DNA from: a virus
Virus record (IMG/VR): IMGVR_UViG_3300042566_000478
Span: 1-64,000 of that record
Direction: 5' to 3' (one strand)
Length of the DNA stretch: 64,000 nucleotides
Shown: piece by piece, positions 1,515 to 19,137 of the stretch
Layout of the letters: the number at the start of each line of letters is the position of its first letter
How positions within the stretch are numbered: the stretch's first letter is position 1
Program-made: the position numbers and the translations under genes
Notes under the pieces: generated by a model
Told to the model about the DNA's origin: nothing
The model's input: the letters and a program-made list of their open reading frames with translations, nothing else
The model's database searches: none

Positions 1515-1552
1515 ACCTCCTCTGGTCGTTTGGGTTACTTGAACATTACAGA
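1515..1552 (-). promoter_or_regulatory. early promoter (-10 TAATGT) with AACCCAAAC leader and AGGAGG RBS
   Basis: minus: TGTAATGTTCAAGTAACCCAAACGACCAGAGGAGGTCACCATG; -35 weak. Confidence 0.55.
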
Positions 1553-1579
1553 CATTTGGGGCGAATGTGGTGCTGGGTA

Positions 1580-3067
1580 TTAGCCCTCCCATCCGTAGGA
1601 CTCCAGAACCAACATGGCAACGGCTTTGCGCTCATCATCCAGCAGGTCATCTGCCTCGCCATCCAGAACGCTGGACAAGATTCGGTTCTTCATCATGATG
1701 ATTTGAATCATGCGCTCATCAATCGTTGAATGCTCCTCAATCGCACTCAACATGATGTGCGAAACGACATCACGCTTCTGTCCGATTCTCTGCAAACGGT
1801 CTTCGCATTGCAGAAGGTCTGCTGATGTCCAAGGCAACGATGCGCTCACATGATGTCGTGCTGATGTGAGTGTGAGTCCAGTTCCCGATGCAATGATGTT
1901 GCCAACCAACACTCGTGCTGTTCCGTTCTGGAATGCATCAACACTTGCCATCTTCGCTGAGTCATTCATGCCCCCAACAACTTGTACTGCATTCACATCT
2001 GCGAATGCATCCATGTAACGCTTCGCCTCCTCTTTGAATGCACAAGTGATGAACACCTGCTCATCGTTGTCCAGAAGTTCACGCACATAAGCAACAACGC
2101 CATTCACCTTGCCAAGTGCTGACAACTTGCGAAGTTCATTGATGCGAATCAATGCTTCTGCTCGCTCAACATTGTTCGCCTTCTCCTGACCTTTGGTGAT
2201 GCGAATCCACTCGTAGAGATTTGCTTCGGCGTAGCGATACAACTTCTCGTACTTCTCCTCCATCTCCATCGCAACTTCCATACGACCCTTGTTCGGCAAT
2301 TCCAGAACATCGGAACGCTTCATGCGAAGCATGAATGAGCCCACGAGAACATCGTGCAATTCGTTCAAGCGTTGCGCTCCACGAGTGCCATAGTTGTCAA
2401 TGCGTGGTGCATAGCGAGCCATGTATCCACGAATGCCACCTTCAAATGCACCTTGTTGCTCCAGACCATTGATGACCGACAACAATTCCATTGGGCGATT
2501 GATGAGTGGCGTTCCCGACATCATCACTCGGATTCCAGACAATGGAATTGATTGCGAAATATCAATCACGGCTTGCGAACGCTTTGCTCGCTTGCCACCC
2601 TTGATGCGCTGGCATTCATCCACGATGATTCCCTTCACATGACCCTTCAACAGATTCTTGTAACCATCTGCCGATGTGTCACCCATGATGAGTACATCAA
2701 CATCTGGCAATGACTTGATTCCCTGCTTCACAGGGTTAGTACCCGTGATGGTATGCACACTCAACTGCGGAGCGAAGCGTGAGAACTCACGCTTGAATTG
2801 CAATCGCATTGTCGGTGGGCAAACAATCAATACTGGGCGCATTCCTGCTTGAACACTTGATTGCGAAATCGCAACAGCAGTTGGTGACTTGCCTGTTCCC
2901 ATCTCCATCGCAAGCAACACTCGCTGACGCTCCAATGCAAACTTGGTTGCTTCAACTTGATGTGGCATCAATGGCAATGCAGTTTCTTGAACAGCGAAGT
3001 TCAACTTGCTTGGTGCATCATTCAAAATTGACATGAAGCCTTGAAGTGCATCTGACTGGGTTTTCAT
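1580..3067 (-). CDS. SNF2-family (HARP/SMARCAL1-like) helicase
   Basis: LMPHQ, EMGTGKS Walker A, DECQ Walker B, SGTPLINRP, GTGLTL, QCEDRLQRIGQ; start moved to ATG 3067 behind AGGAGG. Confidence 0.9.
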   Translation of the reverse strand: MKTQSDALQGFMSILNDAPSKLNFAVQETALPLMPHQVEATKFALERQRVLLAMEMGTGKSPTAVAISQSSVQAGMRPVLIVCPPTMRLQFKREFSRFAPQLSVHTITGTNPVKQGIKSLPDVDVLIMGDTSADGYKNLLKGHVKGIIVDECQRIKGGKRAKRSQAVIDISQSIPLSGIRVMMSGTPLINRPMELLSVINGLEQQGAFEGGIRGYMARYAPRIDNYGTRGAQRLNELHDVLVGSFMLRMKRSDVLELPNKGRMEVAMEMEEKYEKLYRYAEANLYEWIRITKGQEKANNVERAEALIRINELRKLSALGKVNGVVAYVRELLDNDEQVFITCAFKEEAKRYMDAFADVNAVQVVGGMNDSAKMASVDAFQNGTARVLVGNIIASGTGLTLTSARHHVSASLPWTSADLLQCEDRLQRIGQKRDVVSHIMLSAIEEHSTIDERMIQIIMMKNRILSSVLDGEADDLLDDERKAVAMLVLESYGWEG

Positions 3068-3162
3068 ATTTCCTCCTGTGGAATTGGTTGGGTTCAGCGT
3101 AGCCAGTTTGGAATGGATTCGGCAGGACATTACAGACTTTTTTTTAGAGCCCCAGAATGCCA

Positions 3163-3200
3163 GAAGCCCCGACTCCACAGGGGTTCTGGAGTCAGGGCTC
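3163..3200 (-). terminator. intrinsic terminator-like hairpin
   Basis: minus GCCCTGACTCCA-gaacccctg-TGGAGTCGGGGC-TTCT. Confidence 0.65.
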
Positions 3201-3221
3201 TGGGCTCGGCTTTGCTTCGGG

Positions 3222-3791
3222 CTACTGGTATCGCACCTCATCCCACATGGCTACCTGCATGATGCGATTCCCAGCCTCTGGTGAGAAGAAAAAGTGATTG
3301 GTCTGCATTCCCAGCCTCCATTGGCGAAGTACTGAGTCATCGGTGAGTGACAGCATCTTCACAGCACCAACGATGTCACGGCGTGACAATTCAGCCATAG
3401 TGCAGGTCGTACCAACTGTGTGACCTGACATTGGTTCACCTACCCAAAGTCTCACGAAATCTTCCCAGAACGAAACTGGATGCGAATCTTCTGCGTACTT
3501 GAACACATCTGTGAACGACACATAAGTGAACAGTTCTTGATTGTGGAAATGAGGAACATTAGTAGGCAGAGTGTTGAAGCGTGATGACAACACAGCCTTC
3601 ACGAGTGGGTCACAGAATCGCTGTGGTTCTCCTGCGAAGTCATTCATCGCTTCAATGACTCCACACTCAGAGCAAATCTCGGTCATGTTGTCTACTCGTG
3701 AGATTGCACCTGCATACATTCCTGCGTGTTCACGATTCGGAATTGGTGAATCGCATCGTGGGCAATCTTTGATTTCATTTTGAATTGACAT
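3222..3791 (-). CDS. hypothetical protein with N-terminal Zn finger
   Basis: CPRC...GAISRVDN..EICSECG; start moved to MSIQNE. Confidence 0.7.
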   Translation of the reverse strand: MSIQNEIKDCPRCDSPIPNREHAGMYAGAISRVDNMTEICSECGVIEAMNDFAGEPQRFCDPLVKAVLSSRFNTLPTNVPHFHNQELFTYVSFTDVFKYAEDSHPVSFWEDFVRLWVGEPMSGHTVGTTCTMAELSRRDIVGAVKMLSLTDDSVLRQWRLGMQTNHFFFSPEAGNRIMQVAMWDEVRYQ

Positions 3792-3792
3792 T

Positions 3793-4071
3793 TCAGAATG
3801 TCTCCTTCGTGATTGTGATTGTGTTTTCAAATGATTCTGTTTCAACAGAGATGTTGGTGATGTCTGCAAAGAACTCACCAATCGCTTGTGCTTGCTTTGC
3901 CATTGCAATGAAATGTTCTTCAACCCATTTGAAGTTGTCAGAAGTGTTCATTGTCTTTGCATCTTCACGGTACTTCTCCGATGCGTAACCAAGAATGCGA
4001 ACAAGTGTGTACGCATCAATTACGCAAGCATCTTTTTTGGTATCTGGGATTTCTACTTTTGCAAGTCTCAT
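3793..4071 (-). CDS. hypothetical protein
   Basis: start MRLAKV behind ACCCAAAC leader and AAGGAG RBS. Confidence 0.7.
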   Translation of the reverse strand: MRLAKVEIPDTKKDACVIDAYTLVRILGYASEKYREDAKTMNTSDNFKWVEEHFIAMAKQAQAIGEFFADITNISVETESFENTITITKETF

Positions 4072-4191
4072 GACTGCTCCTTTGTGTTTGGGTACTGACA
4101 TCATATGTCGGGGGTGTACCAATGTCCAACATCTAAGTTCCAGAGCCTTAGAACGCTTCCTATGAGGCGGTTTCTGGGGACATAATAGAAA

Positions 4192-4223
4192 AGAGCCCCA
4201 GACCACTTGGGTCTGAGGCTCTT
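4192..4223 (-). terminator. intrinsic terminator
   Basis: minus AAGAGCCTCAGACC-caagt-GGTCTGGGGCTCTT-TTTC. Confidence 0.8.
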
Positions 4224-4270
4224 CACCTGTGAGGCGGATTCCGACACTTAGCGGAGGCTTCGCATCGGAC

Positions 4271-4579
4271 TCACAAGTATGCGTGTAATGCTTCTGGCAA
4301 GTTGCGCCTGTACTCACCAGACTCAGCAACGAATCCATTTGGGCGAGCAATGACTGTCCACACTACGAATGGTGTGAAGTTGTTGTGTGGAAGAAAGCAC
4401 AACGCTTTCCACGATGCGTATGTTTCACCAACAACACGCTCTCCTCGCTTTTCGCATTCCAGAACAATTCCACCAGTTGTACCAACAAGGTCACCTCGTT
4501 GTAATTGGTCGTTGCTCCTGTCTTTCGGAGTGGTGTCCAAGATTGAATCAACAATCTCTTTGAATACTTGTTCTTGCAT
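4271..4579 (-). CDS. hypothetical protein
   Basis: start MQEQVF behind GAAGGAG RBS. Confidence 0.7.
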   Translation of the reverse strand: MQEQVFKEIVDSILDTTPKDRSNDQLQRGDLVGTTGGIVLECEKRGERVVGETYASWKALCFLPHNNFTPFVVWTVIARPNGFVAESGEYRRNLPEALHAYL

Positions 4580-4609
4580 TTCTGCTCCTTCGTTTGGTTT
4601 GGGATAGTC

Positions 4610-4638
4610 AGGGTATCTGCTCGTAGGACACATTTCAA
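4610..4638 (-). promoter_or_regulatory. sigma70-type promoter
   Basis: TTGAAA-17 nt-TACCCT. Confidence 0.6.
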
Positions 4639-4731
4639 ACATCATTCCCAGAGCAAATAAATCACTAGCAATGTGTAGAAGATGCACCAGCCAACTGTGG
4701 CGTAATTGAACATATTCGGGCTTTCAATCGT

Positions 4732-4788
4732 GAAGGGCTCAGAGAGTCGCAATGTTGGGGGAACATTACAGACTTTTCTGAGCCCTTC
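4732..4788 (-). terminator. long hairpin after the DUF932 gene, containing an octamer copy
   Basis: GAAGGGCTCAGA...TCTGAGCCCTTC inverted repeat with an inner GTAATGTT/AACATTGC stem. Confidence 0.65.
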
Positions 4789-4801
4789 TGGGTTGTTAGG
4801 A

Positions 4802-5866
4802 CTAAGCAGTCACCAATTCAAGTTTGGCGAGAACCATCTTGTCGTACTCTGCTTGCTGGTTTGAAACCAAGCGAGTGTAGTTACGGTTGTAACGGTTCTT
4901 GTCAGAGCCTGACAAGTGCTGATGGAATGTTGTTGTTGCTTGGATTACTCCGAGTGCTGTGTTCTTCCAAGGCAACACTCGTGGGTCTGTGCGCCACAAG
5001 CCATTCAACAAGTCACGCTTCGGATTCTGCTTGCCAGCAGAGCGAGTGTCTTGTGTGTTGGATGGAACAATGAGTGTCTTTCCAGACTCATCCTTCATGG
5101 TGAGTTCAACCATGTTGATTGGGAACAAGTCTTTCACCAGAGCATCAAACTGATTGTCAGTTACTGACCATGCTGACAACTTCTCCAACTCTTCCATCAT
5201 GTCGCTTCCTGCGCTGTAGACAATTTCAAGAGCCTCACGCAAGTTGCCGAGGTCATTCAACTGTGCTGAACGATTGTGGCGAATCTTCACCTTGTGGTCT
5301 GCATTCTCATTGAGTGCCAACTGCAAAGTGTTGTCGCAAACAACTGCTTGGAGACAACGCAAGTATTGAGTCTGTCGCATTCCGTCATGCGATGTTGTCG
5401 CAATGAGTGTTGGGCGAAACTCAAATCCAGAAGTGCTGGAGAGATTCTCTGGTACTGAGATTTGTACCCATGCACGACTGCCCTTCTGGAGCAATCCTGC
5501 TGAGTCAATTCCGAGTTCGTTGCTGTCAAGAATCGCTTCCAAGTTCTTCAACAACACATCTTCGTATTGGTGAATCTGGTAGCGATTAGAAACAACACCA
5601 AAAACTTCTCCGTTGTTGCTGTGGGTAATCGCTTGCTTGCCATCAATCACTTTGAATGAGCCATCGCTGTTCTTTGCGTACACAGGCTTTGATACTGCTT
5701 CAAAGTTGAAGAGTCGGCGTTTGACATCTTCTACTGGAACGAATCCCTCGTAGTGATTGGACTCTTCACCTTGCTCTTCGGCTCGCCAATGCCAAGCCAT
5801 TCCACGCTTCAGCGTGTTTCCAATCAGGGTCATGCGGTTCAACCAACCGCTTGTTTCTGCTGACAT
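4802..5866 (-). CDS. DUF932 / TIGR03299 phage-plasmid-like protein
   Basis: GMAWH, GVVSNRYQIHQ, SAGLLQKGSRAW, TTSHDG, AVVCDNTL, KIRH motifs. Confidence 0.85.
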   Translation of the reverse strand: MSAETSGWLNRMTLIGNTLKRGMAWHWRAEEQGEESNHYEGFVPVEDVKRRLFNFEAVSKPVYAKNSDGSFKVIDGKQAITHSNNGEVFGVVSNRYQIHQYEDVLLKNLEAILDSNELGIDSAGLLQKGSRAWVQISVPENLSSTSGFEFRPTLIATTSHDGMRQTQYLRCLQAVVCDNTLQLALNENADHKVKIRHNRSAQLNDLGNLREALEIVYSAGSDMMEELEKLSAWSVTDNQFDALVKDLFPINMVELTMKDESGKTLIVPSNTQDTRSAGKQNPKRDLLNGLWRTDPRVLPWKNTALGVIQATTTFHQHLSGSDKNRYNRNYTRLVSNQQAEYDKMVLAKLELVTA

Positions 5867-5916
5867 GATATTGCTTCTTTCTCCGCACTCTGGCGGTGTT
5901 TGGGTTTAGGACATTG

Positions 5917-5945
5917 ATTCAATCAGATGTTTTGTCTTTTTGCAA
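5917..5945 (-). promoter_or_regulatory. promoter with atypical -10
   Basis: TTGCAA-17 nt-TTGAAT; shares ATCTGATTGAAT with 7596-7607. Confidence 0.5.
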
Positions 5946-5976
5946 CATCTTCTTATTTTCTTTTTATTGCAAGGGA

Positions 5977-6870
5977 TTATCGCCATCCCTTGCCGAGGTC
6001 ACGGGCGTTCTTCCAGATACTGGATGACTCTGGTGTCTCTGATTTGGTTGCGTGAAGTTGTCGCATCACCTGCTGGCGAATCATCGTGTTCATCGCTTGG
6101 GCAAGTGCTTGTGTGAACTCTGTTTCTGACAACAAGGACATGACAATGTTTTTGAAATCAAAGTTCTTGATTTCATCTTGAACCATCTCTTTGAAATCCA
6201 TCTCATCAATTTCACTTTGTACTGCATCGCTGAAGTCGTGCTCATCAATCACATCATTGACGATTGCTGTTACTTCGTACTTCAATCTTCTGTCATCGTC
6301 TAACTCTTCAATCTTTTCTTCCAAGTCTGCGAAACGAGACTTAGTTGCGTTCTCAATTACTGCATTGAGGTCGTAGTCTTCCAATGCTTCTTCAATGACT
6401 TCATGTGCATTGATTGTCCATGCACTAAGTTTCTCAACTTCTGCTTCAAGTGCATCAATTCTGTTGCAAAGATTGTTGAGCCACTCTGGTGCTTCTGGAA
6501 CAATCTCTTCATCTCGTGATTCTGAGTTAGACACATCTTTGAATTGAAATGGATTCAAGTTGTCAAGTTCAATGTGAGTTTTGTAAATCTTTTCTGGATT
6601 CACTTTGGTGTAGTACTGCAAGTACGAAGACATTACAGAAACTCGCATTCCATTTGGCAGTCTCAACATCTCCCAACCTTCAACAGAATCGCCTGCATCA
6701 GCAAGTGTGTACGCACCATCAATCCACTCTGCTGGAAGAAGTGTTTTTGTTCCTGATGTCTGTGCTGGGATGAGTAAGTCGCTGTCACCAGTCCAATGAA
6801 CAACTCGTACATAGAGTCGCTCATTCTCTGGAAGGTCATCTGCGATGTTCCAATCGTTTTGATTATTCAT
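5977..6870 (-). CDS. hypothetical acidic coiled-coil protein
   Basis: long ORF; start MNNQND behind GAAAGAAGGAAAG. Confidence 0.75.
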   Translation of the reverse strand: MNNQNDWNIADDLPENERLYVRVVHWTGDSDLLIPAQTSGTKTLLPAEWIDGAYTLADAGDSVEGWEMLRLPNGMRVSVMSSYLQYYTKVNPEKIYKTHIELDNLNPFQFKDVSNSESRDEEIVPEAPEWLNNLCNRIDALEAEVEKLSAWTINAHEVIEEALEDYDLNAVIENATKSRFADLEEKIEELDDDRRLKYEVTAIVNDVIDEHDFSDAVQSEIDEMDFKEMVQDEIKNFDFKNIVMSLLSETEFTQALAQAMNTMIRQQVMRQLHATKSETPESSSIWKNARDLGKGWR

Positions 6871-6872
6871 GT

Positions 6873-7307
6873 TCACTTTCCTTCTTTCGTTGTCCATTGG
6901 GTTTCAATTTCATCTTTGATTGCGGTGGTAAATGTATCCCACATATAATCCGAGTTCAAACATCCAGCGAACCATTCCAAATCTTCTTTTGGCAATGCGG
7001 TGAAATACTTTGCTTTTTCTGTTTCATCTTTACTGAAATAGAACTCTGAGTTTTCTTGCAACTCTTGTTGAATTGCATCTGGACTAAATGCGATGGAGTT
7101 TGAATAATTCAAATCTCCGTAACCGCATCCTTCAAGCATTGGTCGCAATGGTTTGCCCATCTGGTCTGCAAGTTCCAGAACATCACCATCGCCACCTTGA
7201 AAGATTTCTTCTTGGTCTTGCTCTGAGAGTTCATCTGTATCAACGATGACACAATGCTCAACATAGAGAATTGTTCCAGATTGTTCACAAATAATAATCT
7301 TTGACAT
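6873..7307 (-). CDS. hypothetical protein
   Basis: acidic 144-aa ORF, translationally coupled to neighbours. Confidence 0.7.
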   Translation of the reverse strand: MSKIIICEQSGTILYVEHCVIVDTDELSEQDQEEIFQGGDGDVLELADQMGKPLRPMLEGCGYGDLNYSNSIAFSPDAIQQELQENSEFYFSKDETEKAKYFTALPKEDLEWFAGCLNSDYMWDTFTTAIKDEIETQWTTKEGK

Positions 7308-7567
7308 CAGCGCACCACCACATCGTATTCAGTTACATAAAAGTCTTCGTGACTGACTGACATATGTCCGTTCATCAATCCCTTCAACTCTTCAACACCA
7401 CCAGTTGCATAGAAGAAGATTTCTTCATCTGGATGTCCAAACACATCGCCAACTACATCTCCTTTTTCATTAGTGACTTCATCACCAAATGAAATGTAAA
7501 CATAATGGTCTGTTTTTGCTTCATCATCCCAGTATCGGATGGTTGCATTCGCACCTTCTGGTTTCAC
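7307..7567 (-). CDS. hypothetical protein
   Basis: GTG start behind AGAGGAG. Confidence 0.65.
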   Translation of the reverse strand: MKPEGANATIRYWDDEAKTDHYVYISFGDEVTNEKGDVVGDVFGHPDEEIFFYATGGVEELKGLMNGHMSVSHEDFYVTEYDVVVR

Positions 7568-7595
7568 TTTCGCTCCTCTGTTTGTTGGGACTCTC

Positions 7596-7624
7596 ATTCA
7601 ATCAGATTGGAACGGACATTACAA
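7596..7624 (-). promoter_or_regulatory. promoter whose -35 overlaps an octamer copy
   Basis: TTGTAA-17 nt-TTGAAT. Confidence 0.5.
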
Positions 7625-7644
7625 CCTTTTTCCATAGAAATGCG

Positions 7645-7792
7645 AAAGCCCCAGATGCCACTCACAAGGAAGGCATTATCTGGGGCTCAATTCACACCAA
7701 AACCCAAATTGGTGTGGCATTACCTCTGCTATTACTCAGAGGCTCGCTTGGTTACCTGTCTAACGAAAGGAGGAAAGAAAACAGGCAACCAA
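7645..7792 (-). ncRNA. putative four-hairpin small RNA / structured 3' UTR with anti-RBS loops (element A)
   Basis: stems at 7748-7792, 7723-7742, 7693-7716 and terminator 7647-7687; G-U pair favours minus strand; loops UCUUUCCUCCUUUCGUU and UUUGGGUU. Confidence 0.65.
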
Positions 7793-7796
7793 TCCT

Positions 7797-8012
7797 TTAC
7801 CAAAGTGCTTTCACATACTTGTGTGTCTCTTCTGCAACAGCATCTTTGTGAAATGGGTCGTGCATTGATGAGCGAAGTGTTTCGGCAACATCAGAACGCA
7901 CATTGGACAAAACATTGAAGTACGCCTGACCGTACCTCCACGATGGTTTGAACTGGTGGTAGTACTTCTCAACACGCTCCATGAACTCTTCGTATGAAAG
8001 TTTCTCTTTCAT
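7797..8012 (-). CDS. hypothetical protein (WRYGQAYFN...DPF type)
   Basis: motif recurrent in small phage proteins. Confidence 0.75.
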   Translation of the reverse strand: MKEKLSYEEFMERVEKYYHQFKPSWRYGQAYFNVLSNVRSDVAETLRSSMHDPFHKDAVAEETHKYVKALW

Positions 8013-8449
8013 TGCGCTCCCATCAAGTACGCAACAGCGAACTGAACTGCATCAAACAAATCGTGCGTTACATACAAACCTTCTGCACCAGAACTGTCAT
8101 TTGCATCAATCACTTCAAACCAAGGATTGCTCACATAAACAAATCGCTTTCGTTCTGTTACAAACTCATCAAGCAATTCATCAGTAGTGATTCCCCATTG
8201 CTCCAAATCGGTTGCATTGTAAATCGCTCCGTAATTGTCATGACCTTTGGACACGATGTCAATCTTCAATGTTCCTTGAACGCATACTGCAAGTTGCATG
8301 GTTGGGCTTTGTGCAAACACAACTGTCTTGTTTGCATTCCCGACATACCATTCAGCACCAGCACGAGACAAGTTTGGTGGAACATTCCAGATGACTTGTG
8401 GGACATTACGAACATTCCCACCTGTGACAATGATGTTTCCTGTGCTCAT
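8009..8449 (-). CDS. hypothetical protein
   Basis: ORF track; coupled start/stop. Confidence 0.7.
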   Translation of the reverse strand: MSTGNIIVTGGNVRNVPQVIWNVPPNLSRAGAEWYVGNANKTVVFAQSPTMQLAVCVQGTLKIDIVSKGHDNYGAIYNATDLEQWGITTDELLDEFVTERKRFVYVSNPWFEVIDANDSSGAEGLYVTHDLFDAVQFAVAYLMGAQ

Positions 8450-8757
8450 TCTTCTTCTCCTTTTGCTACATCAAGACAAAGCAATGCGACACTTCCATCA
8501 GTATCCATTTCTTGAATCGTTTGTCCATTCCATTCAACATTGCGATATGGGTACGCAGTTGCTCGCATGAATGGTTCTCCATACACCGAGATGTTGATGT
8601 CCCATTCTCCACCGCCAAGTGCTTCTGGAATGGTGACACCTTGCCACTCATCAAAGTCATCGTAAAACACCTTCTGTTCACGAATCGCTTTCTCTGCCAA
8701 ATGCAATGCTTCTTCTGTTAGGTAATTCACTAACTCTTCGCTTTTTGTCATGAACAT
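8446..8757 (-). CDS. hypothetical protein
   Basis: ORF track; GGAGG RBS. Confidence 0.7.
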   Translation of the reverse strand: MFMTKSEELVNYLTEEALHLAEKAIREQKVFYDDFDEWQGVTIPEALGGGEWDINISVYGEPFMRATAYPYRNVEWNGQTIQEMDTDGSVALLCLDVAKGEEE

Positions 8758-8981
8758 ACTTCCTCCAAGTATTCCAAATCAATGTTGAATAAAATGACCG
8801 TGTGACCTTCTGGAGCGTAAAACTTTACATACGCTCCGTCTAAATCTTCTTCCATGTCTTCATTTACATTACAGACATATTTGAGTTTCGCAACATCCTC
8901 GTCACCATAAAACTGGTTGGTGTTGAGTGCTGGAATCAACAAATCTTGTGCAACTAAATCGGGGCGAATAATGTGTGGCAT
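8748..8981 (-). CDS. hypothetical protein
   Basis: start MPHIIR overlaps upstream stop (TAATG). Confidence 0.65.
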   Translation of the reverse strand: MPHIIRPDLVAQDLLIPALNTNQFYGDEDVAKLKYVCNVNEDMEEDLDGAYVKFYAPEGHTVILFNIDLEYLEEVCS

Positions 8982-9487
8982 TAGAAGTGGAAATCCCAAA
9001 TCACGGCGTACTGGTTTTCTGGCTTGTCAGTAACACGAGTGCGAAACGCTTTCAAGTTTGCGCTGTGGTACTCAATGTCAAACACTTGTGTTTGGTAGTC
9101 GTAACCCTGCGGTTCAGCAAGTTCAAGTGCTTTCTTTGCTCGGTACACCGCCAGATAATCATCACCAAAGTAATCCTTATCATCTGACTCGTTTTTCTTA
9201 CCGATGGCTACAAGTTCGGAGATGGTGTAACTACCAACTTGTTCAATGAATCGTTCAAGGTCTGATTCCATTGAATCTTGCCACAGTTTGATTTTCTTCT
9301 CAAAGAGTTCTTCGTTGCCTTTGTAACAGAGAATGTTTGAACCATCAAACTCTCCATCCCATCTTCCACCGATTTCACTCCAGTCTGACCAAGCATCCTG
9401 AGCGTATAATTGAACGAAATCAGTTACTTTGTTTTCTGCTTCTGTCTTGTCAGTTGCTTCAACTAACAAAATGTGTCCGATATGCAT
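8981..9487 (-). CDS. hypothetical protein (WSDWSEIGGRWDG ... DFH family)
   Basis: DW..IGGRW.G and terminal D.H motif seen in phage/plasmid proteins; AAGGAG RBS. Confidence 0.8.
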   Translation of the reverse strand: MHIGHILLVEATDKTEAENKVTDFVQLYAQDAWSDWSEIGGRWDGEFDGSNILCYKGNEELFEKKIKLWQDSMESDLERFIEQVGSYTISELVAIGKKNESDDKDYFGDDYLAVYRAKKALELAEPQGYDYQTQVFDIEYHSANLKAFRTRVTDKPENQYAVIWDFHF

Positions 9488-9497
9488 GATGTCTCCT

Positions 9498-10181
9498 TTA
9501 TTGGGTTTGGGTTTGCTTAGACAACTTTACAGGTGCTGGAAGAGAAAGCAACGCCTCTTCCAACATTTTTCCAATCTCTTCCTGAACAAGTTCTTCCATC
9601 TCGTAATGAACTTCTCCAGTATCGTCATTTGACATTCTCTTGAAGATGTCAATCCACTTTTCATCTTCTGAGTTTGCAATGTCAATGAACGATTCAAAGA
9701 ACTGACCGCCACGATAGTGAGCAGTCAATCCGTAAAAACCCATGCCCATCTCTTCATATGTTTCAATGAATGCGAGAGTTGGGTAGAGAGTGCTGATGTA
9801 CTGCCACAATGGTGAACAAGGTGACCACGCAGTTTGATAACTAAACTCTGCGTAGTTTCGTGTAATGAGGTTCTGGTAAATCTCTGCTGGTGACCACTTA
9901 GTTCCCCAGTTGGCAATGTTCCAGTCGTACCAATCTTTGTAACCGTACATTACAATGTTTTCTGCTTGTTTCTTCTCGTGCGCTTCTTTTTCTGGGCTAC
10001 CTTCGGCGTACCATCCTGAAACTGTGTTTGCCAATGCATCTGGTGTTGGGTGCAGTCTGGTGAAATCGTAGATTGATTCATCATCCGTATTGCATCCATC
10101 AATTCTGACCCAATGCAAAAAGTCCGAAAGTTCGGTTGCATCTCCAACCACATTGATTGTGTTGTTGCAGTAATTAGGCAT
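9498..10181 (-). CDS. DUF1281/YubB ferredoxin-like (Api92-like) protein
   Basis: MPNYCNN, WYDWNIANWGTKW, QTAWSP, YEEMGMGFYG. Confidence 0.85.
   Translation of the reverse strand: MPNYCNNTINVVGDATELSDFLHWVRIDGCNTDDESIYDFTRLHPTPDALANTVSGWYAEGSPEKEAHEKKQAENIVMYGYKDWYDWNIANWGTKWSPAEIYQNLITRNYAEFSYQTAWSPCSPLWQYISTLYPTLAFIETYEEMGMGFYGLTAHYRGGQFFESFIDIANSEDEKWIDIFKRMSNDDTGEVHYEMEELVQEEIGKMLEEALLSLPAPVKLSKQTQTQ
9524..9551 (-). promoter_or_regulatory. promoter for 8981-9487
   Basis: TTGCTT-16 nt-TAAAGT followed by AAACCCAAACCCAA leader. Confidence 0.5.
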
Positions 10182-10497
10182 TTTCCTCTTCCTCTTCTTC
10201 TTCTTCGTAGATATCTACTTGGATTTCCATGTACTCCTGTGTGCATGGGTTTTCGGTAACAAAGTATCCGATGCGATTGATGTAATGAAAGCCACTCATA
10301 ATCCATGTGCCTTCGTCACCATCTACCCATGTCCAAATGTTTGCATCTGGTTGTTTGGCAATGAAAGCCAAATCTTCTCCATAGGTTTCAAACATCGTGC
10401 CATTCCAACCCATGTCACCATTTGGGTTTTGAATTGGTTTGAATGTTGTTTCCCACAACTCCAAATCCTTTTCCATTTCTGTTGTGATTCTAGCCAT
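10174..10497 (-). CDS. hypothetical protein
   Basis: FETYG...IWTWVDGD...GFHYINRIGYF motif common in phage early genes. Confidence 0.8.
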   Translation of the reverse strand: MARITTEMEKDLELWETTFKPIQNPNGDMGWNGTMFETYGEDLAFIAKQPDANIWTWVDGDEGTWIMSGFHYINRIGYFVTENPCTQEYMEIQVDIYEEEEEEEENA

Positions 10498-10691
10498 TAC
10501 TCCTCCTCCTTCAAGAGTTCAACCATTTCGTACAACACTTGTTGTAGCACCTCGTTACCCAATTCCACAACCCGTTCGTGAACATAACCTTCAACTTCTT
10601 CCATTGCTTCAATGCACTCGGCTTTTGACCAATGTGGGTACATTGCTTTCGCATCTTCCCAAGACCACTTGACTACAACTTCACTTGCCAT
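10497..10691 (-). CDS. hypothetical protein
   Basis: 64-aa ORF, AAGGAG RBS. Confidence 0.7.
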   Translation of the reverse strand: MASEVVVKWSWEDAKAMYPHWSKAECIEAMEEVEGYVHERVVELGNEVLQQVLYEMVELLKEEE

Positions 10692-10809
10692 TGCGCTTCT
10701 CCTTTGCTTTGAAATAAAAAGTTGTTTGAATTACTCCGTATGCGATACCCATCCACATATAAAGTGTTTCTGTTTTGAATGTGACTGTTACATCTGCAAG
10801 AATTGACAT
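10681..10809 (-). CDS. small hypothetical protein (42 aa)
   Basis: read manually: MSILADVTVTFKTETLYMWMGIAYG...; TAATG coupling. Confidence 0.45.
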   Translation of the reverse strand: MSILADVTVTFKTETLYMWMGIAYGVIQTTFYFKAKEKRNGK

Positions 10810-10982
10810 TACAGAGTTTCTCCTTCTTCAACTGCTTCTACACTCTGAAACTCACGAGTTTCAAAAAGAAACACACCTTTGTCTGATGCGTGTTCTTGTG
10901 CTGTGAATGAACTGTCTGCTTCAATCTCATACACATCAGTTTCAATGTATGTGTAATACACACGGTACTTCTGGAGTTTCAT
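10809..10982 (-). CDS. small hypothetical protein (57 aa)
   Basis: read manually: MKLQKYRVYYTYIETDVYEIEADS...; TAATG coupling. Confidence 0.65.
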   Translation of the reverse strand: MKLQKYRVYYTYIETDVYEIEADSSFTAQEHASDKGVFLFETREFQSVEAVEEGETL

Positions 10983-11218
10983 TAGAACTCACCTTCCCCT
11001 GTGATTGAGAAATAAAGAAAGTTCCACACTTGCTCGTTTATGGTTTCGTAACCACCGCTACAGTCAAACTCAGCGACTGCTTTTACCCACTCTTTTGAAT
11101 CTGCTTTCAATGGTTCATCATCGTCATCCGTAAAAAGATTTGATTCCCACCATGAACACGCAATCTCTTCGTCTGGGTTGAGTTCGCTGAGTAACCCAAT
11201 CACCTTGCTTACCTTCAT
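10982..11218 (-). CDS. hypothetical protein
   Basis: start MKVSKVIGLL behind AAGGAG. Confidence 0.7.
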   Translation of the reverse strand: MKVSKVIGLLSELNPDEEIACSWWESNLFTDDDDEPLKADSKEWVKAVAEFDCSGGYETINEQVWNFLYFSITGEGEF

Positions 11219-11247
11219 GTCTTCTCCTTTGGTTGTTCGTGTATGGA

Positions 11248-11276
11248 ACACTACAGACATCTGAATGGAATAGCAA
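11248..11276 (-). promoter_or_regulatory. sigma70-type promoter
   Basis: TTGCTA-17 nt-TAGTGT (octamer variant TGTAGTGT). Confidence 0.65.
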
Positions 11277-11293
11277 CCACCATTTCAAACTTT

Positions 11294-11728
11294 TTATCCA
11301 GCCTTACCCCGTGTGGCTTTTCCAAGAAACCCGTTTGCTCTGGCAAGCATTACTCGCTTGGCTGATGTGGACTTAGAGATACTGAATGCTTTAGCAACAG
11401 CCTCAATAGGTGACACTCCATAGTTCAATGCATCTTTGTAGATTCGGGCAACTTCTTCCAGAAGGTCATCTGGCAATGTTGCGCCACGCTGTGCGCCTTT
11501 GAGTGTTGCTTTGAAATCTGGTTTAGGAAGAATACTTGCGAGAGCATCTTTTGCTAATTGCACGATTGGTACTCGTCTGTAAATCTCCACCGTAATGGTG
11601 TTGTTATCAACTGATGTAATGCCGACACCTGTGAAGCGAAGCATTCCTCCAATTTTTGTGAACTTGATATTGACATCAAATTGCTGTTTGGTAACTGGGT
11701 CAATCCATGTGAAAGTTTCTGAGTTCAT
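11294..11728 (-). CDS. HTH DNA-binding protein
   Basis: EVARIYKDAL...PIEAVAKAFSISKSTSAKRVMLARANGFL C-terminal HTH. Confidence 0.75.
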   Translation of the reverse strand: MNSETFTWIDPVTKQQFDVNIKFTKIGGMLRFTGVGITSVDNNTITVEIYRRVPIVQLAKDALASILPKPDFKATLKGAQRGATLPDDLLEEVARIYKDALNYGVSPIEAVAKAFSISKSTSAKRVMLARANGFLGKATRGKAG

Positions 11729-12027
11729 TGTTTGTTCCTCTTACTGCGAAGGTCTTTTCGCTTTCGTGCTGTAGTACCGCCCCAGATACCTAATTCGTAA
11801 TTATCTAATGCAAAGTTGAGACAACTTTGTTTGACAGAGCAGACATTACAAAACTGTTCAATAACAACTTTGTAGTGACCACCAGCAGAACCTTTTTCTG
11901 GGAAGAATTGGTCTGCATCAACTCCTCTGCAAGCACCTTTCTCCATCCATGTCATTGGTTCACGAAGAATAAGTGTTTTGCGAATCTCTTCTTGTTGATT
12001 GATGTAAATGCTCTGTGCTGAACTCAA
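11725..12027 (-). CDS. whiB: WhiB-family transcription factor
   Basis: W...GAC, FFP, CNVCSVKQSC, GIWGG; TTG start behind GGAGG (alternative ATG 11955). Confidence 0.9.
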   Translation of the reverse strand: MSSAQSIYINQQEEIRKTLILREPMTWMEKGACRGVDADQFFPEKGSAGGHYKVVIEQFCNVCSVKQSCLNFALDNYELGIWGGTTARKRKDLRSKRNKQ

Positions 12028-12356
12028 ACTGCTTCCTCCATTTCCCAGAAGCCAAAGCAAGCACCATCGGAATCTAATGTTCCAAAGGTGCATCCTTCTG
12101 GTGCGATTGCATCCATCACATTGAAGAGATGGTCTACGAGAAACATTTCTTGTTCCTCGTCACGGACTGCTTTGGGGTCAATCATTGCGAACAGGACATC
12201 GTTCCAATCGTCAAGGATTGCTTCTTTGATTTTTGGGTCGTGTTCCCCGATGACTGCAAGGAAGGCTTTTGCCAAATCCTCGGTACGGAGTGTTCCTTCA
12301 GAAACGATGGAGTTTACCCACACATCTCCCAAAGGCTTGATGTTTTCGTAAGACAT
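12024..12356 (-). CDS. hypothetical protein
   Basis: SEGTLRTEDL...APEGCTFG..DSDGACFGFW motif seen in phage proteins. Confidence 0.8.
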   Translation of the reverse strand: MSYENIKPLGDVWVNSIVSEGTLRTEDLAKAFLAVIGEHDPKIKEAILDDWNDVLFAMIDPKAVRDEEQEMFLVDHLFNVMDAIAPEGCTFGTLDSDGACFGFWEMEEAV

Positions 12357-12380
12357 ACTTGCTCCTTCTGTAGGAGCATC

Positions 12381-12409
12381 ACATTACAGGTTCAGAACGG
12401 AAGTGGCAA
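12381..12409 (-). promoter_or_regulatory. sigma70-type promoter overlapping an octamer copy
   Basis: TTGCCA-17 nt-TAATGT. Confidence 0.7.
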
Positions 12410-12411
12410 CT

Positions 12412-12567
12412 CTATTCTGAGTCTTTTTTGCCGTGTTGAATCATGGGCAAATACTTTTCAGGAAGGGTACTTCCACCGCATTGGTGCATCGGTGGGTAAT
12501 TAGTTTTCACATACAAAATTACTTTGTGGTCACACCAAGGACAAAGATATGTCGTACCTTTATTCAC
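12412..12567 (-). CDS. small Zn-ribbon-like protein (51 aa)
   Basis: read manually: MNKGTTYLCPWCDHKVILYVKTNYPPMHQC...; GTG overlaps upstream TAG. Confidence 0.5.
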   Translation of the reverse strand: MNKGTTYLCPWCDHKVILYVKTNYPPMHQCGGSTLPEKYLPMIQHGKKDSE

Positions 12568-13100
12568 TATAAACTCCAATGCCTCAATCCACCGTTATCA
12601 AGTAAATACTTGCTCACTTTTAGGTTACAGTCAAGTGTTCTCAAAAGTTTGATTCCACCACCACAAATGTTCTTTGTTACGGTCTGCCATGAAGAATTGA
12701 CCTGTAGCAAGCCACTATCGTATGAGCCGTTCTTGTTCAATGTCCAAATGATTTTGCCATTGGCATTCCACTTAGCATTTACTGCATCTGGGTTGCATCC
12801 GCTTTCACGCCATGCAATGTACGAAAACACCTGCACAGGGAGCAAACCGTAGTCACGGAATGCCTGCTCAAATTGAGGGCATCGCCTGGTTTTATCTGAA
12901 GGGATGCGCTTATCTTCAGGTTCTGGAATTGTTGTAGTTGTAGTTGGCACAATCAAGTAAGGCTCAACTGAAATTGGGTGCTTTGGGTAAACAGATTCTG
13001 GTGTATTTGCTGTGCTTGGGGACATTACAGAAAAGATGGAGGCGAGAACAAGATTCCCTGTCAGCGCAACCGTTTTGAGTATTTCCGACAATCTAAGCAT
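12567..13100 (-). CDS. secreted lytic transglycosylase (SLT/lysozyme-like)
   Basis: signal peptide, poly-Thr linker, IAWRESGC catalytic Glu, DSGLLQVN, CNL...W. Confidence 0.8.
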   Translation of the reverse strand: MLRLSEILKTVALTGNLVLASIFSVMSPSTANTPESVYPKHPISVEPYLIVPTTTTTIPEPEDKRIPSDKTRRCPQFEQAFRDYGLLPVQVFSYIAWRESGCNPDAVNAKWNANGKIIWTLNKNGSYDSGLLQVNSSWQTVTKNICGGGIKLLRTLDCNLKVSKYLLDNGGLRHWSL

Positions 13101-13123
13101 TCATTATCCTTTGTTCGGGTAAT

Positions 13124-13208
13124 AAAAAAGCCCCATCCATTGAAGTATGGGGCGCAAGGCTCGGTATGGGGAGCACTACAAGTTTACACCAAATTAGCCT
13201 TCTAGCAA
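13124..13208 (-). promoter_or_regulatory. promoter plus short structured leader ending in a terminator
   Basis: TTGCTA-16 nt-TAAACT; hairpins 13159-13174 and 13130-13153 with T6 tail. Confidence 0.55.
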
Positions 13209-13607
13209 CCTCTGGAGCAGTATTTTTAGGTCAGGAAGTTCTTCTCCTATAAGGGGAATAATATCTACATCTATTTCATTGCGTAATGGGCGTGTTGTGT
13301 GAGCCCAATCACAATCATCACAAGCACAGCCTTGACGAAAGCGTACAACTGTTCCATGTTCAGCAAGATTGTTTGTTGTGTCCTTCTGTAGCGGTACACG
13401 CTCTTGTGGTGTTAGTCCACCCCACACTCCATATGTTTCTTTTCTTCCTATTGAGAGACACTCATCCCAAACAGGGCAGACATTACAAACTTGTTTTGCA
13501 ATGAGATAATTTATTTCTGGAGTTTGTGCGTCAAATGGTGGAAAGAAAATATCTCCATGCATTTTTCTGCACAGAGCATCCGACATCCATTCGGGAGTTT
13601 CTATCAC
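13194..13607 (-). CDS. whiB: WhiB-family transcription factor with C-terminal Cys/His extension
   Basis: WMSDALC, FFPP, CNVCPVWDEC, YGVWGG; extension HGT...GCACDDC. Confidence 0.9.
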   Translation of the reverse strand: MIETPEWMSDALCRKMHGDIFFPPFDAQTPEINYLIAKQVCNVCPVWDECLSIGRKETYGVWGGLTPQERVPLQKDTTNNLAEHGTVVRFRQGCACDDCDWAHTTRPLRNEIDVDIIPLIGEELPDLKILLQRLLEG

Positions 13608-13930
13608 TAGTGTTTCTCTCGGTACAAAACAAGAGCAATGATTGCGTATGACGCTAGGTCAATAAGAGAATCTTCAATTCCTTCGTTGCGAAGTTTGCTA
13701 CCTTTCGCTGCGGATTGCAGACGAATCACTTTGTCGTTTGCACGAATGAGTGTTCCAACCCAAGCAGGTACTCCCCAGTCAGTTGATGCACGAACATTTG
13801 CAAGAGGGTCTTCACCTGTTCCGTAATCACTACCTTTTTTTTCATGCATCTCTCCCAACTCTTGGAGTATGCGATAAAACTCTGGGTGTCCTGTTCTGTC
13901 CACGATTATTCTGCTCCGTTTTCTGTCCAC
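13607..13930 (-). CDS. DUF1599 / nucleotide-modification-associated domain protein
   Basis: KKGSDYG...DPLANV...DKVIRL...EGIEDSLIDLASYAII. Confidence 0.8.
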   Translation of the reverse strand: MDRKRSRIIVDRTGHPEFYRILQELGEMHEKKGSDYGTGEDPLANVRASTDWGVPAWVGTLIRANDKVIRLQSAAKGSKLRNEGIEDSLIDLASYAIIALVLYREKH

Positions 13931-14328
13931 TCTTCAAGACTGTCCATACCGTAAAAAATTGGCATTTCCAACCTTTCTGCTTCTTTTATTTCTTCAATCG
14001 CTTCGTAGGCTTCAAACACCAGAACAGCGTCACAACGCTTCATTACTTGAAAGCAATACTCATTCCAAAACTCTGTACTGTTGGGGTACTTTTGATTCCA
14101 GAAACCACAGGTAAGCACAGGAATTACTGGTAGACATATTCCAGAGGTGTACAACTCTTCTGCTAGGTCAATAGCATCTTGGTAATTGTCATCTATATTG
14201 TCACGGTGATATGGCCCAACAACATACACATGAGGAAGAAGAATGTGAGCCAAGGTTCTCATAAACTCTTTGTTTACTCCTTCTACCATGATGTCTTCGG
14301 AGTAGTTTCTTAGAACGAAATCCCCCAT
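13906..14328 (-). CDS. DUF1937/DUF4406-like (nucleoside deoxyribosyltransferase fold) protein
   Basis: VYVVGPY, PVIP, CDAVLV, EIKEAERLEMPIFY. Confidence 0.65.
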   Translation of the reverse strand: MGDFVLRNYSEDIMVEGVNKEFMRTLAHILLPHVYVVGPYHRDNIDDNYQDAIDLAEELYTSGICLPVIPVLTCGFWNQKYPNSTEFWNEYCFQVMKRCDAVLVFEAYEAIEEIKEAERLEMPIFYGMDSLEEWTENGAE

Positions 14329-14405
14329 TACGAATGCCTGTTCATATTAGAACGAATAGCCATGTAGTAGCAAGCAAGTGCGAGAACAATGAATACCTTT
14401 GTCAT
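14328..14405 (-). CDS. 25-aa hydrophobic peptide
   Basis: MTKVFIVLALACYYMAIRSNMNRHS; fills the gap with coupled start and stop. Confidence 0.35.
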   Translation of the reverse strand: MTKVFIVLALACYYMAIRSNMNRHS

Positions 14406-14626
14406 CACTTTTCCTGCAACCACTTCAGACCATTACGAAGATATACGGTGGCATAACAGAACGCCATGAATATAAATCCGTATTGTTTGGTTTGGATGGC
14501 AAAAATAATCCAAAGCAATTCATTGACTGAAAGAAAAAAGAATGCGTGGGCGTGTTTTTTGCCAACATACCACATCCCTGTAACGCCGAAGATGGCAAGC
14601 ACCCACGACCATATTTGTTCACTCAT
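14405..14626 (-). CDS. small membrane protein, PnuC-like three-helix unit
   Basis: WSWVLAIFGVTG...LWIIFAIQTKQYG...YLRNGLKW. Confidence 0.65.
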   Translation of the reverse strand: MSEQIWSWVLAIFGVTGMWYVGKKHAHAFFFLSVNELLWIIFAIQTKQYGFIFMAFCYATVYLRNGLKWLQEK

Positions 14627-14669
14627 TTTGTACTCCTAATATCCGTATTAGGAGTACATTAGTACAGAT

Positions 14670-14909
14670 TTACTTGTCTGTACTCCAAGCGTGAACTGAT
14701 TGAATCAGAACACCCAAAACATCGTCAGGGTTTTCATCCTCATTGACCAAAGACTGGCAATAGGTGGAAGCGGACTTAGCAACACTTTCTGCTTTTTCCA
14801 ACTTCTTAGCCATTGATTCAATCATCTGGCGAAGGGCTTGCTTGTCATCGTATGCACGAGCAAGTGATACCTGTAGGTCTTGAATTACTGCAAACTCAAA
14901 TGACTCCAT
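14670..14909 (-). CDS. hypothetical coiled-coil protein
   Basis: ORF track; GAGAGG RBS. Confidence 0.65.
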   Translation of the reverse strand: MESFEFAVIQDLQVSLARAYDDKQALRQMIESMAKKLEKAESVAKSASTYCQSLVNEDENPDDVLGVLIQSVHAWSTDK

Positions 14910-14961
14910 AAAACCTCTCTTTTTAGGTTATACACAAGCGTACAACCTATGAATGGTCTTG

Positions 14962-16398
14962 TCAAGCCTCATCCGATAGGTCAATGACATCCTGATACAT
15001 ACGGTCAGTCTGCTGGGCATTCAACCCACCTCCAGACAGTTGCCTCGTAGATTCCCCGACTGCTTGACCAAATATACGACTAAGCACCCCACTGCTTCCT
15101 CTGGCTTCTACCTCTAAGCGCATGACATCACGAGTATCCGATATGTCTTTGAACTTCTCTACCAAGTTGAACAGGCGTTCTACCTCATTGGACAACGCTG
15201 GGTCAAGACCTTGACCTTCTAGTTCTTCGGCAAAGCGAGCGAACAATACACGGCTCACTTGCATCTCCAGAAGAGCCCTCATCGCAGCCTGTAACTGGTC
15301 TTTAGTTTTGATTTCTACAGGCAACTTGAATCCACATTCTGAGTTCTCCTTGAATGCAGGACATCTGGCACTCAAATAGCAACTATTACATTGTCTGAAA
15401 AGACTACTTTGGTACTGAATTACAGGTACTTTTTCAATACCTATTTCTTCAGATTCTCCTTCTCCTGCAAGGGTTTGCGCTAATGGAGGAGTGTACTGCT
15501 CAATACCCATTACTGGTAGCAATACTTTGTCACCCTCGTGCCTCTTCTCAGACCCCCTAATAGTAATACTTGTACCCCCTGAAACCACATTTGGTGAAGT
15601 AGGCAAATTACTCAAATAGTTACTATTATCTTCATTTTCCGATAGACCTATTTCTTCTTCATCGTTGTCTTCTGATGGGTCATAGACCCCAAAAGCACCC
15701 TGCTCCCATGCTTGCCAAGACTTGATTGCCAACTTCGCAACTTCAGCGTTATCGTCTTGAACTATCTGTTCATAGTCAATTCCTAAACGAATAATGTCTG
15801 CTCGGTGTTTCTTTCGGGCAGAATCTTTTTGCTGTGCTGGGTAACGGCGTAAACCGTGACCATCCCATACTTGTGTTTCCCCGTAGCGAACTGCCGATGT
15901 CCATGAACCAACAAGAACAGAATCCCAAGGAAGGGATTCAATAATCTCTGGCTTTGACGACAAACCAATGAGTTTGGCATCCCACCTCTGAATGAGGTTT
16001 CGTATTCTGGAGATAGTTTTACCGTTTACAGCCTTGTCACTAATCGCAGCCCGACCATATCGCTGGCACAGGTAGGCAAGCCTTTCCATGTCATCTGGGT
16101 CATTCCATACTGGGATGTACCTCTCATTTAGCCATGCACCGTCATAATCAGGTCTTCCTATGATTGCAGTTAGGCTTTCGTAATGCTGGCGAATGAAATC
16201 GTCATAGCGAGTAACATCTTCATCATTCTCGGAAGTGTAAAGAATTACCTCGTTCCCACCGAACATTACAGATAAATCAAGTTCTTTTTTCTTGGGAACA
16301 GCCAAATGAGTCAGATTTATAGCAAAGCGAGTTACACCAGCATTCTGGAGAAGCGACCTGTGGGATGACTTTTCGGCATTAGCAAAGTAAATCTTCAT
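14962..16398 (-). CDS. TGT/DpdA-like TIM-barrel protein (degenerate) fused to a Cys-rich C-terminal domain
   Basis: MKIYFA, YIPVW, PWDSVLVGSWTSAVRYG resemble phage TGT-like proteins; CNSCYLSARCPAF..ECGF. Confidence 0.5.
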   Translation of the reverse strand: MKIYFANAEKSSHRSLLQNAGVTRFAINLTHLAVPKKKELDLSVMFGGNEVILYTSENDEDVTRYDDFIRQHYESLTAIIGRPDYDGAWLNERYIPVWNDPDDMERLAYLCQRYGRAAISDKAVNGKTISRIRNLIQRWDAKLIGLSSKPEIIESLPWDSVLVGSWTSAVRYGETQVWDGHGLRRYPAQQKDSARKKHRADIIRLGIDYEQIVQDDNAEVAKLAIKSWQAWEQGAFGVYDPSEDNDEEEIGLSENEDNSNYLSNLPTSPNVVSGGTSITIRGSEKRHEGDKVLLPVMGIEQYTPPLAQTLAGEGESEEIGIEKVPVIQYQSSLFRQCNSCYLSARCPAFKENSECGFKLPVEIKTKDQLQAAMRALLEMQVSRVLFARFAEELEGQGLDPALSNEVERLFNLVEKFKDISDTRDVMRLEVEARGSSGVLSRIFGQAVGESTRQLSGGGLNAQQTDRMYQDVIDLSDEA

Positions 16399-17338: not shown

Positions 17339-17383
17339 GTTGTACTACTTTCTATGAACTTGTTATTTGCTGTAGTCTAGCAG

Positions 17384-17548
17384 TTACTTCTTACCTTTTT
17401 TAGACACAGCCATATTGTCCACAAGGTTTGGGTAGGGGCGACCAGCAGACTTAGCACGAGCCTTTGCCTCTGCTTTTTGGTCAGGAGTCAATTTAGTTGA
17501 TTTCTTTTTAGGGTTTGGTTTATCCCAAACGTCTTTTTTAGAAGCCAT
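17384..17548 (-). CDS. small basic protein (54 aa)
   Basis: read manually: MASKKDVWDKPNPKKKSTKLTPDQKAEAKARAKSAGRPYPNLVDNMAV... Confidence 0.75.
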   Translation of the reverse strand: MASKKDVWDKPNPKKKSTKLTPDQKAEAKARAKSAGRPYPNLVDNMAVSKKGKK

Positions 17549-18053: not shown

Positions 18054-18063
18054 ATTACAACCT

Positions 18064-18264: not shown

Positions 18265-18303
18265 ATCAATCCTTATCGGTTGTGGGCAGATGCACCCATT
18301 TTA

Positions 18304-19131: not shown

Positions 19132-19137
19132 GTTCTA

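Follow-up and report, generated by a model that had tools for sequence, protein, structure and literature searches.

A conserved four-hairpin RNA element at a gene boundary of an uncultured myovirus, with loops complementary to leaders of the phage's own genes

Does the long gap that follows a small gene of an uncultured phage hold a regulatory RNA, and if it does, which sequences would that RNA read? The window (the whole stretch of DNA analysed here, 64,000 nt) covers the opening 64 kb of an IMG/VR record of 91,769 bp (~92 kb) whose completeness is about 94%, and the minus strand carries all genes. Because a tail sheath, baseplate J, an SPP1-type portal, a family A DNA polymerase and an SNF2 helicase are encoded, we assign the phage to the myoviruses. 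Among cultured phages, none has a polymerase more than 35% identical to its family A enzyme, and a blastn search of INPHARED phages with positions 7300-8100 gave no match. Searches of the neighbouring genes in Pfam and PHROGs assigned no function to them, and ARAGORN found no tRNA or tmRNA genes in the window. The gap of interest separates a 71-aa gene (8012-7797) from the next start codon, GTG 7567, and at 229 nt it is among the largest in this part of the genome. The element begins 5 nt after the stop codon of the 71-aa gene, which served as the positional anchor in all lineages.

Fold and conservation of the element

On the minus strand, which is the coding strand, positions 7800-7630 (the element itself occupies about 7792-7640) fold into four hairpins with a minimum free energy (MFE) of -70.3 kcal/mol. 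Shuffled sequences average -45.9 +/- 3.9 kcal/mol, which gives the element a z-score of -6.3, and none of 200 shuffles folds as well. The plus strand folds more weakly, at -57.9 kcal/mol. The initial annotation had described four tandem hairpins on the minus strand and had pointed to a G-U pair in stem 1 as favouring it; the hairpins were recovered at the same positions, and the pair is real, with further G-U pairs in hairpins 2 and 4 and in relatives. We rejected a plus-strand reading, in which an SD-like GGAGG would precede an ORF: no start codon lies in range, this strand folds less stably, and the G-U pairs would turn into A-C mismatches there. The coordinates of the hairpins, of the adjacent genes and of the candidate target leaders are collected in Table 1.

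Table 1. Positions of the predicted element, its neighbouring genes and candidate target leaders in the window
Feature	Positions	Strand	Description
71-aa gene	7797..8012	-	upstream of the element; phrog_8466, unknown function
Hairpin 1	7790-7780/7760-7750	-	11-bp stem; 19-nt loop 7779-7761 with anti-SD-like core CUUUCCUCCUUUCG
Three-way junction	7642..7747	-	GCGA (7747-7744) pairs with UCGC (7645-7642); encloses hairpins 2, 3 and 4
Hairpin 2	7743-7737/7728-7722	-	invariant 7-bp stem; loop AGUAAUAG
Hairpin 3	7717-7709/7700-7692	-	covarying 9-bp stem; invariant loop UUUGGGUU (7708-7701)
Hairpin 4	7688-7679/7655-7646; feature 7636..7688	-	G+C-rich 10-11-bp stem with apical extension, then UUUCGCAUUUCU
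TGTAATGT octamer	7616..7623	-	12 nt after the hairpin-4 U-tract; candidate phage-specific promoter for the next unit
Next gene (86 aa)	7307..7567	-	starts at GTG 7567; second-best loop-1 partner among 150 translation initiation regions, -17.2 kcal/mol
Best candidate target	6868..6904	-	AAACCCAA (6904-6897), 5 nt, AACGAAAGAAGGAAAG (6891-6876), 5 nt, ATG 6870
Leader box AAACCCAAA	9506..9514	-	19 nt before ATG 9487
AAACCCAAA box	5907-5899	-	before start 5866
Box class member	4603-4597	-	before start 4579
Box class member	4093-4087	-	before start 4071
Box class member		-	before start 3067; same class as AAACCCAAA
Box ACCCAAA	1535-1529	-	before start 1510

Within this fold, loops 1 and 3 are predicted to be unpaired (0.96-1.0). 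Hairpin 4 is terminator-like, with a strong stem that has 6 G-C pairs, but its loop region is long and its U-tract interrupted; a simple terminator scan made no call there, and the tail of the hairpin is similar to that of the terminator called at 4224-4190. The helix that closes the three-way junction is predicted only, because it is invariant among the variants. Loop-loop kissing inside the element was considered and set aside, as inspection gave at most 3 bp.

The element is carried by eight related IMG/VR contigs and one more metagenome contig, which together contain 8 distinct variants at 82-99% identity. Pairs were counted in a hand-checked alignment (A4) of 49 pairs. Across the 8 variants, 99.5% of the cells are standard pairs, and 10 pairs are doubly compensated, 5 of them in the stem of hairpin 1 and 4 in the stem of hairpin 3. 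None of 500 shuffles reached the observed conservation of pairing, controls in which the partner was slid were 32-47% paired, and the RNAalifold covariation term was -4.73. Three variants also share a paired U-A insertion in hairpin 4. The initial annotation had proposed a comparison of homologous loci; in this clade both the stems and the loops are kept.

Nearly all changes sit in stems 1 and 3. The stem positions that flank loops 1 and 3 vary at 26 of 40 places, whereas the core of loop 1 shows one change in 12 columns and loop 3 shows none in 8; variable stems combined with fixed loops fit hairpins that would present a sequence. The stem of hairpin 2, the outer stem of hairpin 4 and the linkers are invariant in sequence beyond structural need, and the loop of hairpin 2 differs in one variant (L009). 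Sequence comparison places the element under purifying selection; its identity (82-96%) exceeds that of third codon positions in the adjacent gene (68-85%). Conservation also extends across the whole stretch from the TGTAATGT octamer to the next start codon.

We searched Rfam with cmscan, as had also been proposed, using positions 6000-10000 and 7560-7830 and accepting E-values up to 10. No family was matched, and the hits were noise of at most 20 bits (two snoRNA models, a hammerhead model and MEG8); on this covariance-model test the element lies outside every curated family. Run on the whole genome, covariance model R1 found no second copy, so that there is one element per genome. The same model gave no match in 17 loci with distant homologues of the 71-aa gene (35-54% amino acid identity), so that the four-hairpin form belongs, on this evidence, to a single narrow clade. 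A pattern scan of metagenomes added a single new variant (L024), and a pattern scan of genome contigs found no element. Judged from this comparison, we regard the structured RNA as new and well supported and its function as plausible only.

Complementarity of loops 1 and 3 to the phage's own leaders

The initial annotation had proposed an RNA with many targets, in which each hairpin loop would act as a separate guide and loop 1 would pair with ribosome-binding sites. We compared loop 1 with 150 translation initiation regions (TIRs), using the real loop and shuffled C/U loops. The mean duplex energy of loop 1 over the 150 TIRs was reached by 69% of the shuffles. At least 7 contiguous nucleotides complementary to loop 1 were found in 15 TIRs, compared with 10.6 +/- 4.9 for shuffled loops, and 18% of the shuffles reach this count. 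Because shuffled loops pair equally well, which is the outcome that the initial annotation had itself named as speaking against the idea, loop 1 is not demonstrably a specific guide to many ribosome-binding sites. A role as separate guides is left to hairpins 1 and 3 at most, since hairpins 2 and 4 have no such complementarity.

The best candidate for an individual target is the site before ATG 6870, the start of a 297-aa ORF (6870-5977); this site lies within the last codons of a 144-aa gene. Loop 1 (7777-7762) is complementary at 15 of 16 nt to 6891-6876, a match that had been noticed at the outset, and this is the sole site with at most one mismatch in the window; 0.5% of shuffled loop-1 sequences have a site this good. 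Loop 3, in a match absent from the initial annotation, pairs with 8 nt of AAACCCAA. TIR 6870 ranks first of the 150 for each loop separately (-20.0 kcal/mol for loop 1 and -10.8 kcal/mol for loop 3), and it is the top site for loop 3 as well because AAACCCAA sits 5 nt upstream of the 15/16 match. When both loops were scored jointly along the whole coding strand, 6904-6876 was again best, at -30.8 kcal/mol versus -25.8 kcal/mol for the runner-up. Positions that adjoin a loop-3 complement of at least 8 nt make up 1.3% of the total, and the joint chance of the bipartite site is about 6e-5. The order of the two boxes suits antiparallel pairing, in which the 5' loop would meet the SD and the 3' loop the upstream box, and the target site is predicted to be mostly open (0.72-0.80). 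A simple inverted duplication of 6904-6876 was considered and rejected: the spacing between the boxes is 5 nt in the target but 54 nt in the element.

The bipartite site is kept in the subclade that has the 96-aa and 144-aa genes, and its conservation there does not exceed that of the flanking coding sequence. The sister clade (L004/L016, L006/L019, L024 and G005) has identical loops and other downstream genes, and no 15/16 site was found in the 9-20 kb examined there. Because this clade keeps the loops without the site, a single target cannot explain the conservation of the loops.

A wider set of candidate targets shares a leader box. The motif (A)ACCCAA(AC) lies 10-40 nt before the starts at 9487, 6870, 5866, 4579, 4071, 3067 and 1510, and a weaker form precedes 7567. 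The box stands upstream of an AAGGAG-type SD and, among leaders, is found only in the 1-10 kb region. Complements to loop 3 of at least 7 nt occur in 6 of 45 local leaders versus 2.8% of background windows (p = 1.5e-3 for the local 20 kb), the leader counts here and below being based on gene calls of our own that are crude and ad hoc. The complementarity of loop 3 to the leaders at 5866, 9487 and 1510, which the first reading of the sequence had picked out, was found again. In the sister clade, 5 of 49 leaders have loop-3 complements of at least 7 nt (p = 0.012). Among all TIRs, 3 have a complement of at least 8 nt compared with 0.8, which is borderline (p about 0.05).

Two further observations concern these leaders. 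The box often follows, by 4-8 nt, a TGTAATGT-like or T(A/C)AATG-like motif, and for this reason it may mark the 5' ends of transcripts. On the minus strand, the leaders of 7567 (7600-7585) and 5866 (5935-5915) both contain ATCTGATTGAAT, followed by GTCC and a CCCAA box, a resemblance that suggests duplicated promoter-leader cassettes.

The corresponding position in other lineages

Homologues of the 71-aa gene at 35-54% identity are encoded at 25 loci, and two closer homologues are P0003 (72% identical) and P0004 (59%). In the lineage G001 (L035, with a near copy in L059), the gap is followed by a promoter-like stretch of clear homology to the window's, with three hairpins before it, of which the middle one has the loop UUUGGUUG. 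The leaders of G001 carry AACCAAA in place of ACCCAAA (10 of 94 leaders, p = 3e-4). In cross-lineage tests, the window's loop was not enriched in G001 leaders, nor was the G001 loop in the leaders of the window. As far as these sequences go, loop and leader box have changed together between the window's lineage and G001.

In G002, the 15 nt immediately after the stop codon (with CUCCUUGGU) complement the leader consensus ACCAAGGAG, and 8 of 38 leaders match at 9 nt or more. The corresponding segment of G003/G004, CUCCUUGAG, matches UCAAGGAG in 5 of 100 and 4 of 42 leaders, respectively. The anti-SD segments of G002 and G003/G004 are single-stranded, and no more than one leader is matched by a foreign segment; in none of G002, G003 and G004 did the hairpin loops match the lineage's own leaders. 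From the data on the window, G001, G002 and G003/G004 it follows that four lineages have, at the same position, a sequence antisense to their own leader motif, in a comparison that covers few lineages and hairpins chosen after inspection. Inside the clade of the window no covariation of loop and target is visible, because the loops are invariant there.

The loci of two of these lineages share a further arrangement. In L027 (G002), at 3213-3350, the segment after the stop codon of the 71-aa homologue is a perfect 10-nt complement of the next gene's SD, and in L031-L034 and L026, at 3222-3360, the segment after the stop is a 7-nt complement of it. In all of these contigs one long hairpin and a TTGT(A/C)A(A/T)TGT motif lie between the complements, which the MFE fold pairs with each other. 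No sequencing run recorded as RNA was found to contain the window's locus, and two runs aligned to it gave contigs. One of these, 345 nt long and from a wastewater 'RNA-Seq' library (probably DNA), aligns to window positions 7719-7918 and covers the end of the 71-aa gene and hairpins 1 and 2. Its hairpin 1 has a 3-nt loop deletion, as in L006; past hairpin 2 it has a different stem, whose loop again contains UUUUGGGUU.

Possible function and relation to known RNAs

The sequence comparisons lead us to regard the element as probably an antisense regulator of translation. The specific form that we favour, and to which we give serious but tentative credence, is that of an anti-leader RNA that would close a transcription unit at its 3' end and repress the translation of genes in the following units. 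A structured non-coding RNA of ~150 nt would be made from the coding strand as the 3' tail of the unit whose last gene is the 71-aa gene; this unit would run from about 11.2 kb to hairpin 4, where the RNA would end. Hairpins 1 and 3 would act as presentation stems for an anti-SD loop, CCUCCUUUCG, and an anti-box loop, UUUGGGUU. The two loops would pair antiparallel with both boxes of a leader class, 5'-ACCCAA(AC)...AAGGAG-3', on the phage's own genes, the majority of them located in the following units. The strongest pairing would form at the contiguous bipartite site before the 297-aa ORF at 6870, and pairing would occlude the ribosome-binding site and thereby repress translation. Accumulation of the RNA, its action in trans and its repressive effect are all inferred. 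The comparison among lineages partly supports the anti-leader idea. A broader version is possible but more doubtful: across a group of uncultured myoviruses, a boundary RNA would carry antisense copies of the leader of the following units (box and SD) and would co-evolve with it lineage by lineage. If this is true, a boundary anti-leader RNA would amount to a genome-wide, RNA-based timer for the translation of a class of genes.

Other functions have to be weighed against this one. The TIR of gene 7567 is the second of the 150 for loop 1, some complementarity between the two is present in all variants (-12 to -21 kcal/mol), and read-through past hairpin 4 is plausible because its U-tract is weak. 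The element could then work as a gate in cis, with the anti-SD of a read-through transcript pairing with the SD of gene 7567, a reading that would also find a parallel in the 10-nt perfect complement of G002 and the 7-nt complements of G003/G004, which flank a hairpin and are paired in the MFE fold. We nevertheless think such a gate unlikely, and the same holds for its second part, by which gene 7567 would be translated only from transcripts of the internal TGTAATGT promoter, which are without the anti-SD. Loop 3 matches the leader of 7567 by 5 nt only and other leaders by 8-9 nt, the leader of the next gene in G001 has no box, and the best site lies 880 nt off, ahead of the unit's third gene; a gate of this kind, moreover, would have no need of two covarying hairpins for presentation.

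A more modest role would be that of a passive module at the 3' end, in which a terminator would be joined by structures that stabilise the upstream mRNA or direct its processing, RNase III or RNase E sites for instance. The terminator-like hairpin 4 and the location of the element, which closes a unit and is followed at once by a promoter-like motif, agree with such a role, and covariation proves structure, not antisense function. We hold little expectation that this is the whole account, since the loops are fixed although the stems next to them have changed, and as little that the complementarities are by-products of pyrimidine-rich loops meeting purine-rich and C/A-rich leaders. The loop-1 statistics, which equal those of the shuffles, would agree with by-products; the joint chance of the bipartite site, and the loops or segments that match their own leaders in four lineages, argue against them. 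It is very improbable, in our judgement, that the element is a protein-binding or decoy RNA whose fixed loops, invariant hairpins 2 and 4 and junction bind a phage or host protein or the 30S subunit, or that its partners are a chaperone, a ribosomal protein or a translational repressor rather than mRNAs. Such an RNA would account for the invariance beyond structural need in hairpins 2 and 4 and the linkers, and the core of loop 1 does resemble the 3' tail of 16S rRNA, which in the host may differ. It would leave the lineage-specific complementarity to leader boxes unexplained, and no partner protein is identifiable among the neighbouring genes because these have no family assignment.

Among known systems, one from phages P1 and P7 invites comparison with the anti-leader reading. 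A passage in PMC8198154, citing Citron & Schuster 1990, describes C4 as an antisense RNA that shares an operon with icd and ant, is encoded upstream of both, and is required for the repression of ant. By analogy, the logic of our element appears closest to that of this c4 RNA. Both are small structured phage RNAs that lie upstream of their targets (candidate targets in our case) in the same orientation, both have exposed regions complementary to downstream mRNA sites that include a ribosome-binding site, and the outcome proposed here would likewise be translational repression of the phage's own genes. The c4 RNA has two-site complementarity to downstream mRNA; in the window, too, two complementary sites are found in the co-oriented downstream mRNA, one of them covering the ribosome-binding site of a candidate target. 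Unlike c4, the element matches no Rfam family, the C4 model included, and it has four hairpins and a three-way junction, at the end of the preceding unit and behind a terminator-like hairpin. Its candidate targets form a whole leader class, whereas those of c4 belong to one operon, and the phages that carry it, uncultured myoviruses, show no sign of lysogeny control.

RNAIII of S. aureus and RsaE/RoxS and FsrA of Firmicutes are chromosomal RNAs of the host whose C-run seeds pair with G-rich SDs. The element would resemble them in that pyrimidine-rich, unpaired hairpin loops pair with SDs and several hairpins may contact one mRNA twice; it differs in that one loop has a sequence like the anti-SD itself (CCUCCUUUC), with another loop that would read a C/A-rich box upstream of the SD. 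We sought homology to RNAs of this type in Rfam and found none, and as a multi-target anti-RBS seed of the RNAIII/RoxS kind loop 1 did no better than composition-matched shuffles. To our knowledge, few regulatory RNAs of virulent or uncultured phages have been described, and almost none act on the phage's own translation signals. If the anti-leader reading is true, one conserved RNA would read the leader code of a phage gene set, and code and reader would change together between lineages. Such a pair would offer a compact model for RNA-based timing in phage development and a search strategy for viral metagenomes, namely to look for conserved hairpin loops that are complementary to over-represented leader motifs.

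Trans-acting small RNAs are known from other phages. Lambda PreS/LPR1 and vibriophage VpdS have an unpaired seed and a shared target motif; these Hfq-dependent RNAs of temperate phages were discovered by experiment and mainly regulate host mRNAs (bioRxiv 10.1101/2024.10.31.621285). The element has in common with them that it is phage-encoded and would use an unpaired seed for a motif common to many targets; its candidate targets, unlike theirs, are the phage's own leaders, and it is known here from sequence alone. We also considered sRNA2 of PAK_P3 as an anti-RBS analogue and discarded it, as it instead resembles a T-psi-C loop (PMC4933390).

The octamer that follows the element has a distribution of its own. 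In the whole genome (G000), TGTAATGT occurs in 29 copies, compared with about 1.4 expected per strand, and it is strictly strand-polar. All 15 copies on the coding strand lie at about 1543-19219 and all 14 on the opposite strand at 22457-91525, inside genes, so that the orientation flips near 20 kb. These copies may represent a set of promoters, first sense and then antisense, or else a DNA motif with polarity, either origin-related or Chi-like. At about 4790-4732 on the minus strand, TGTAATGT lies within the loop of a strong 12-bp hairpin (GAAGGGCUCAGA / UCUGAGCCCUUC), whereas the other copies follow a hairpin.
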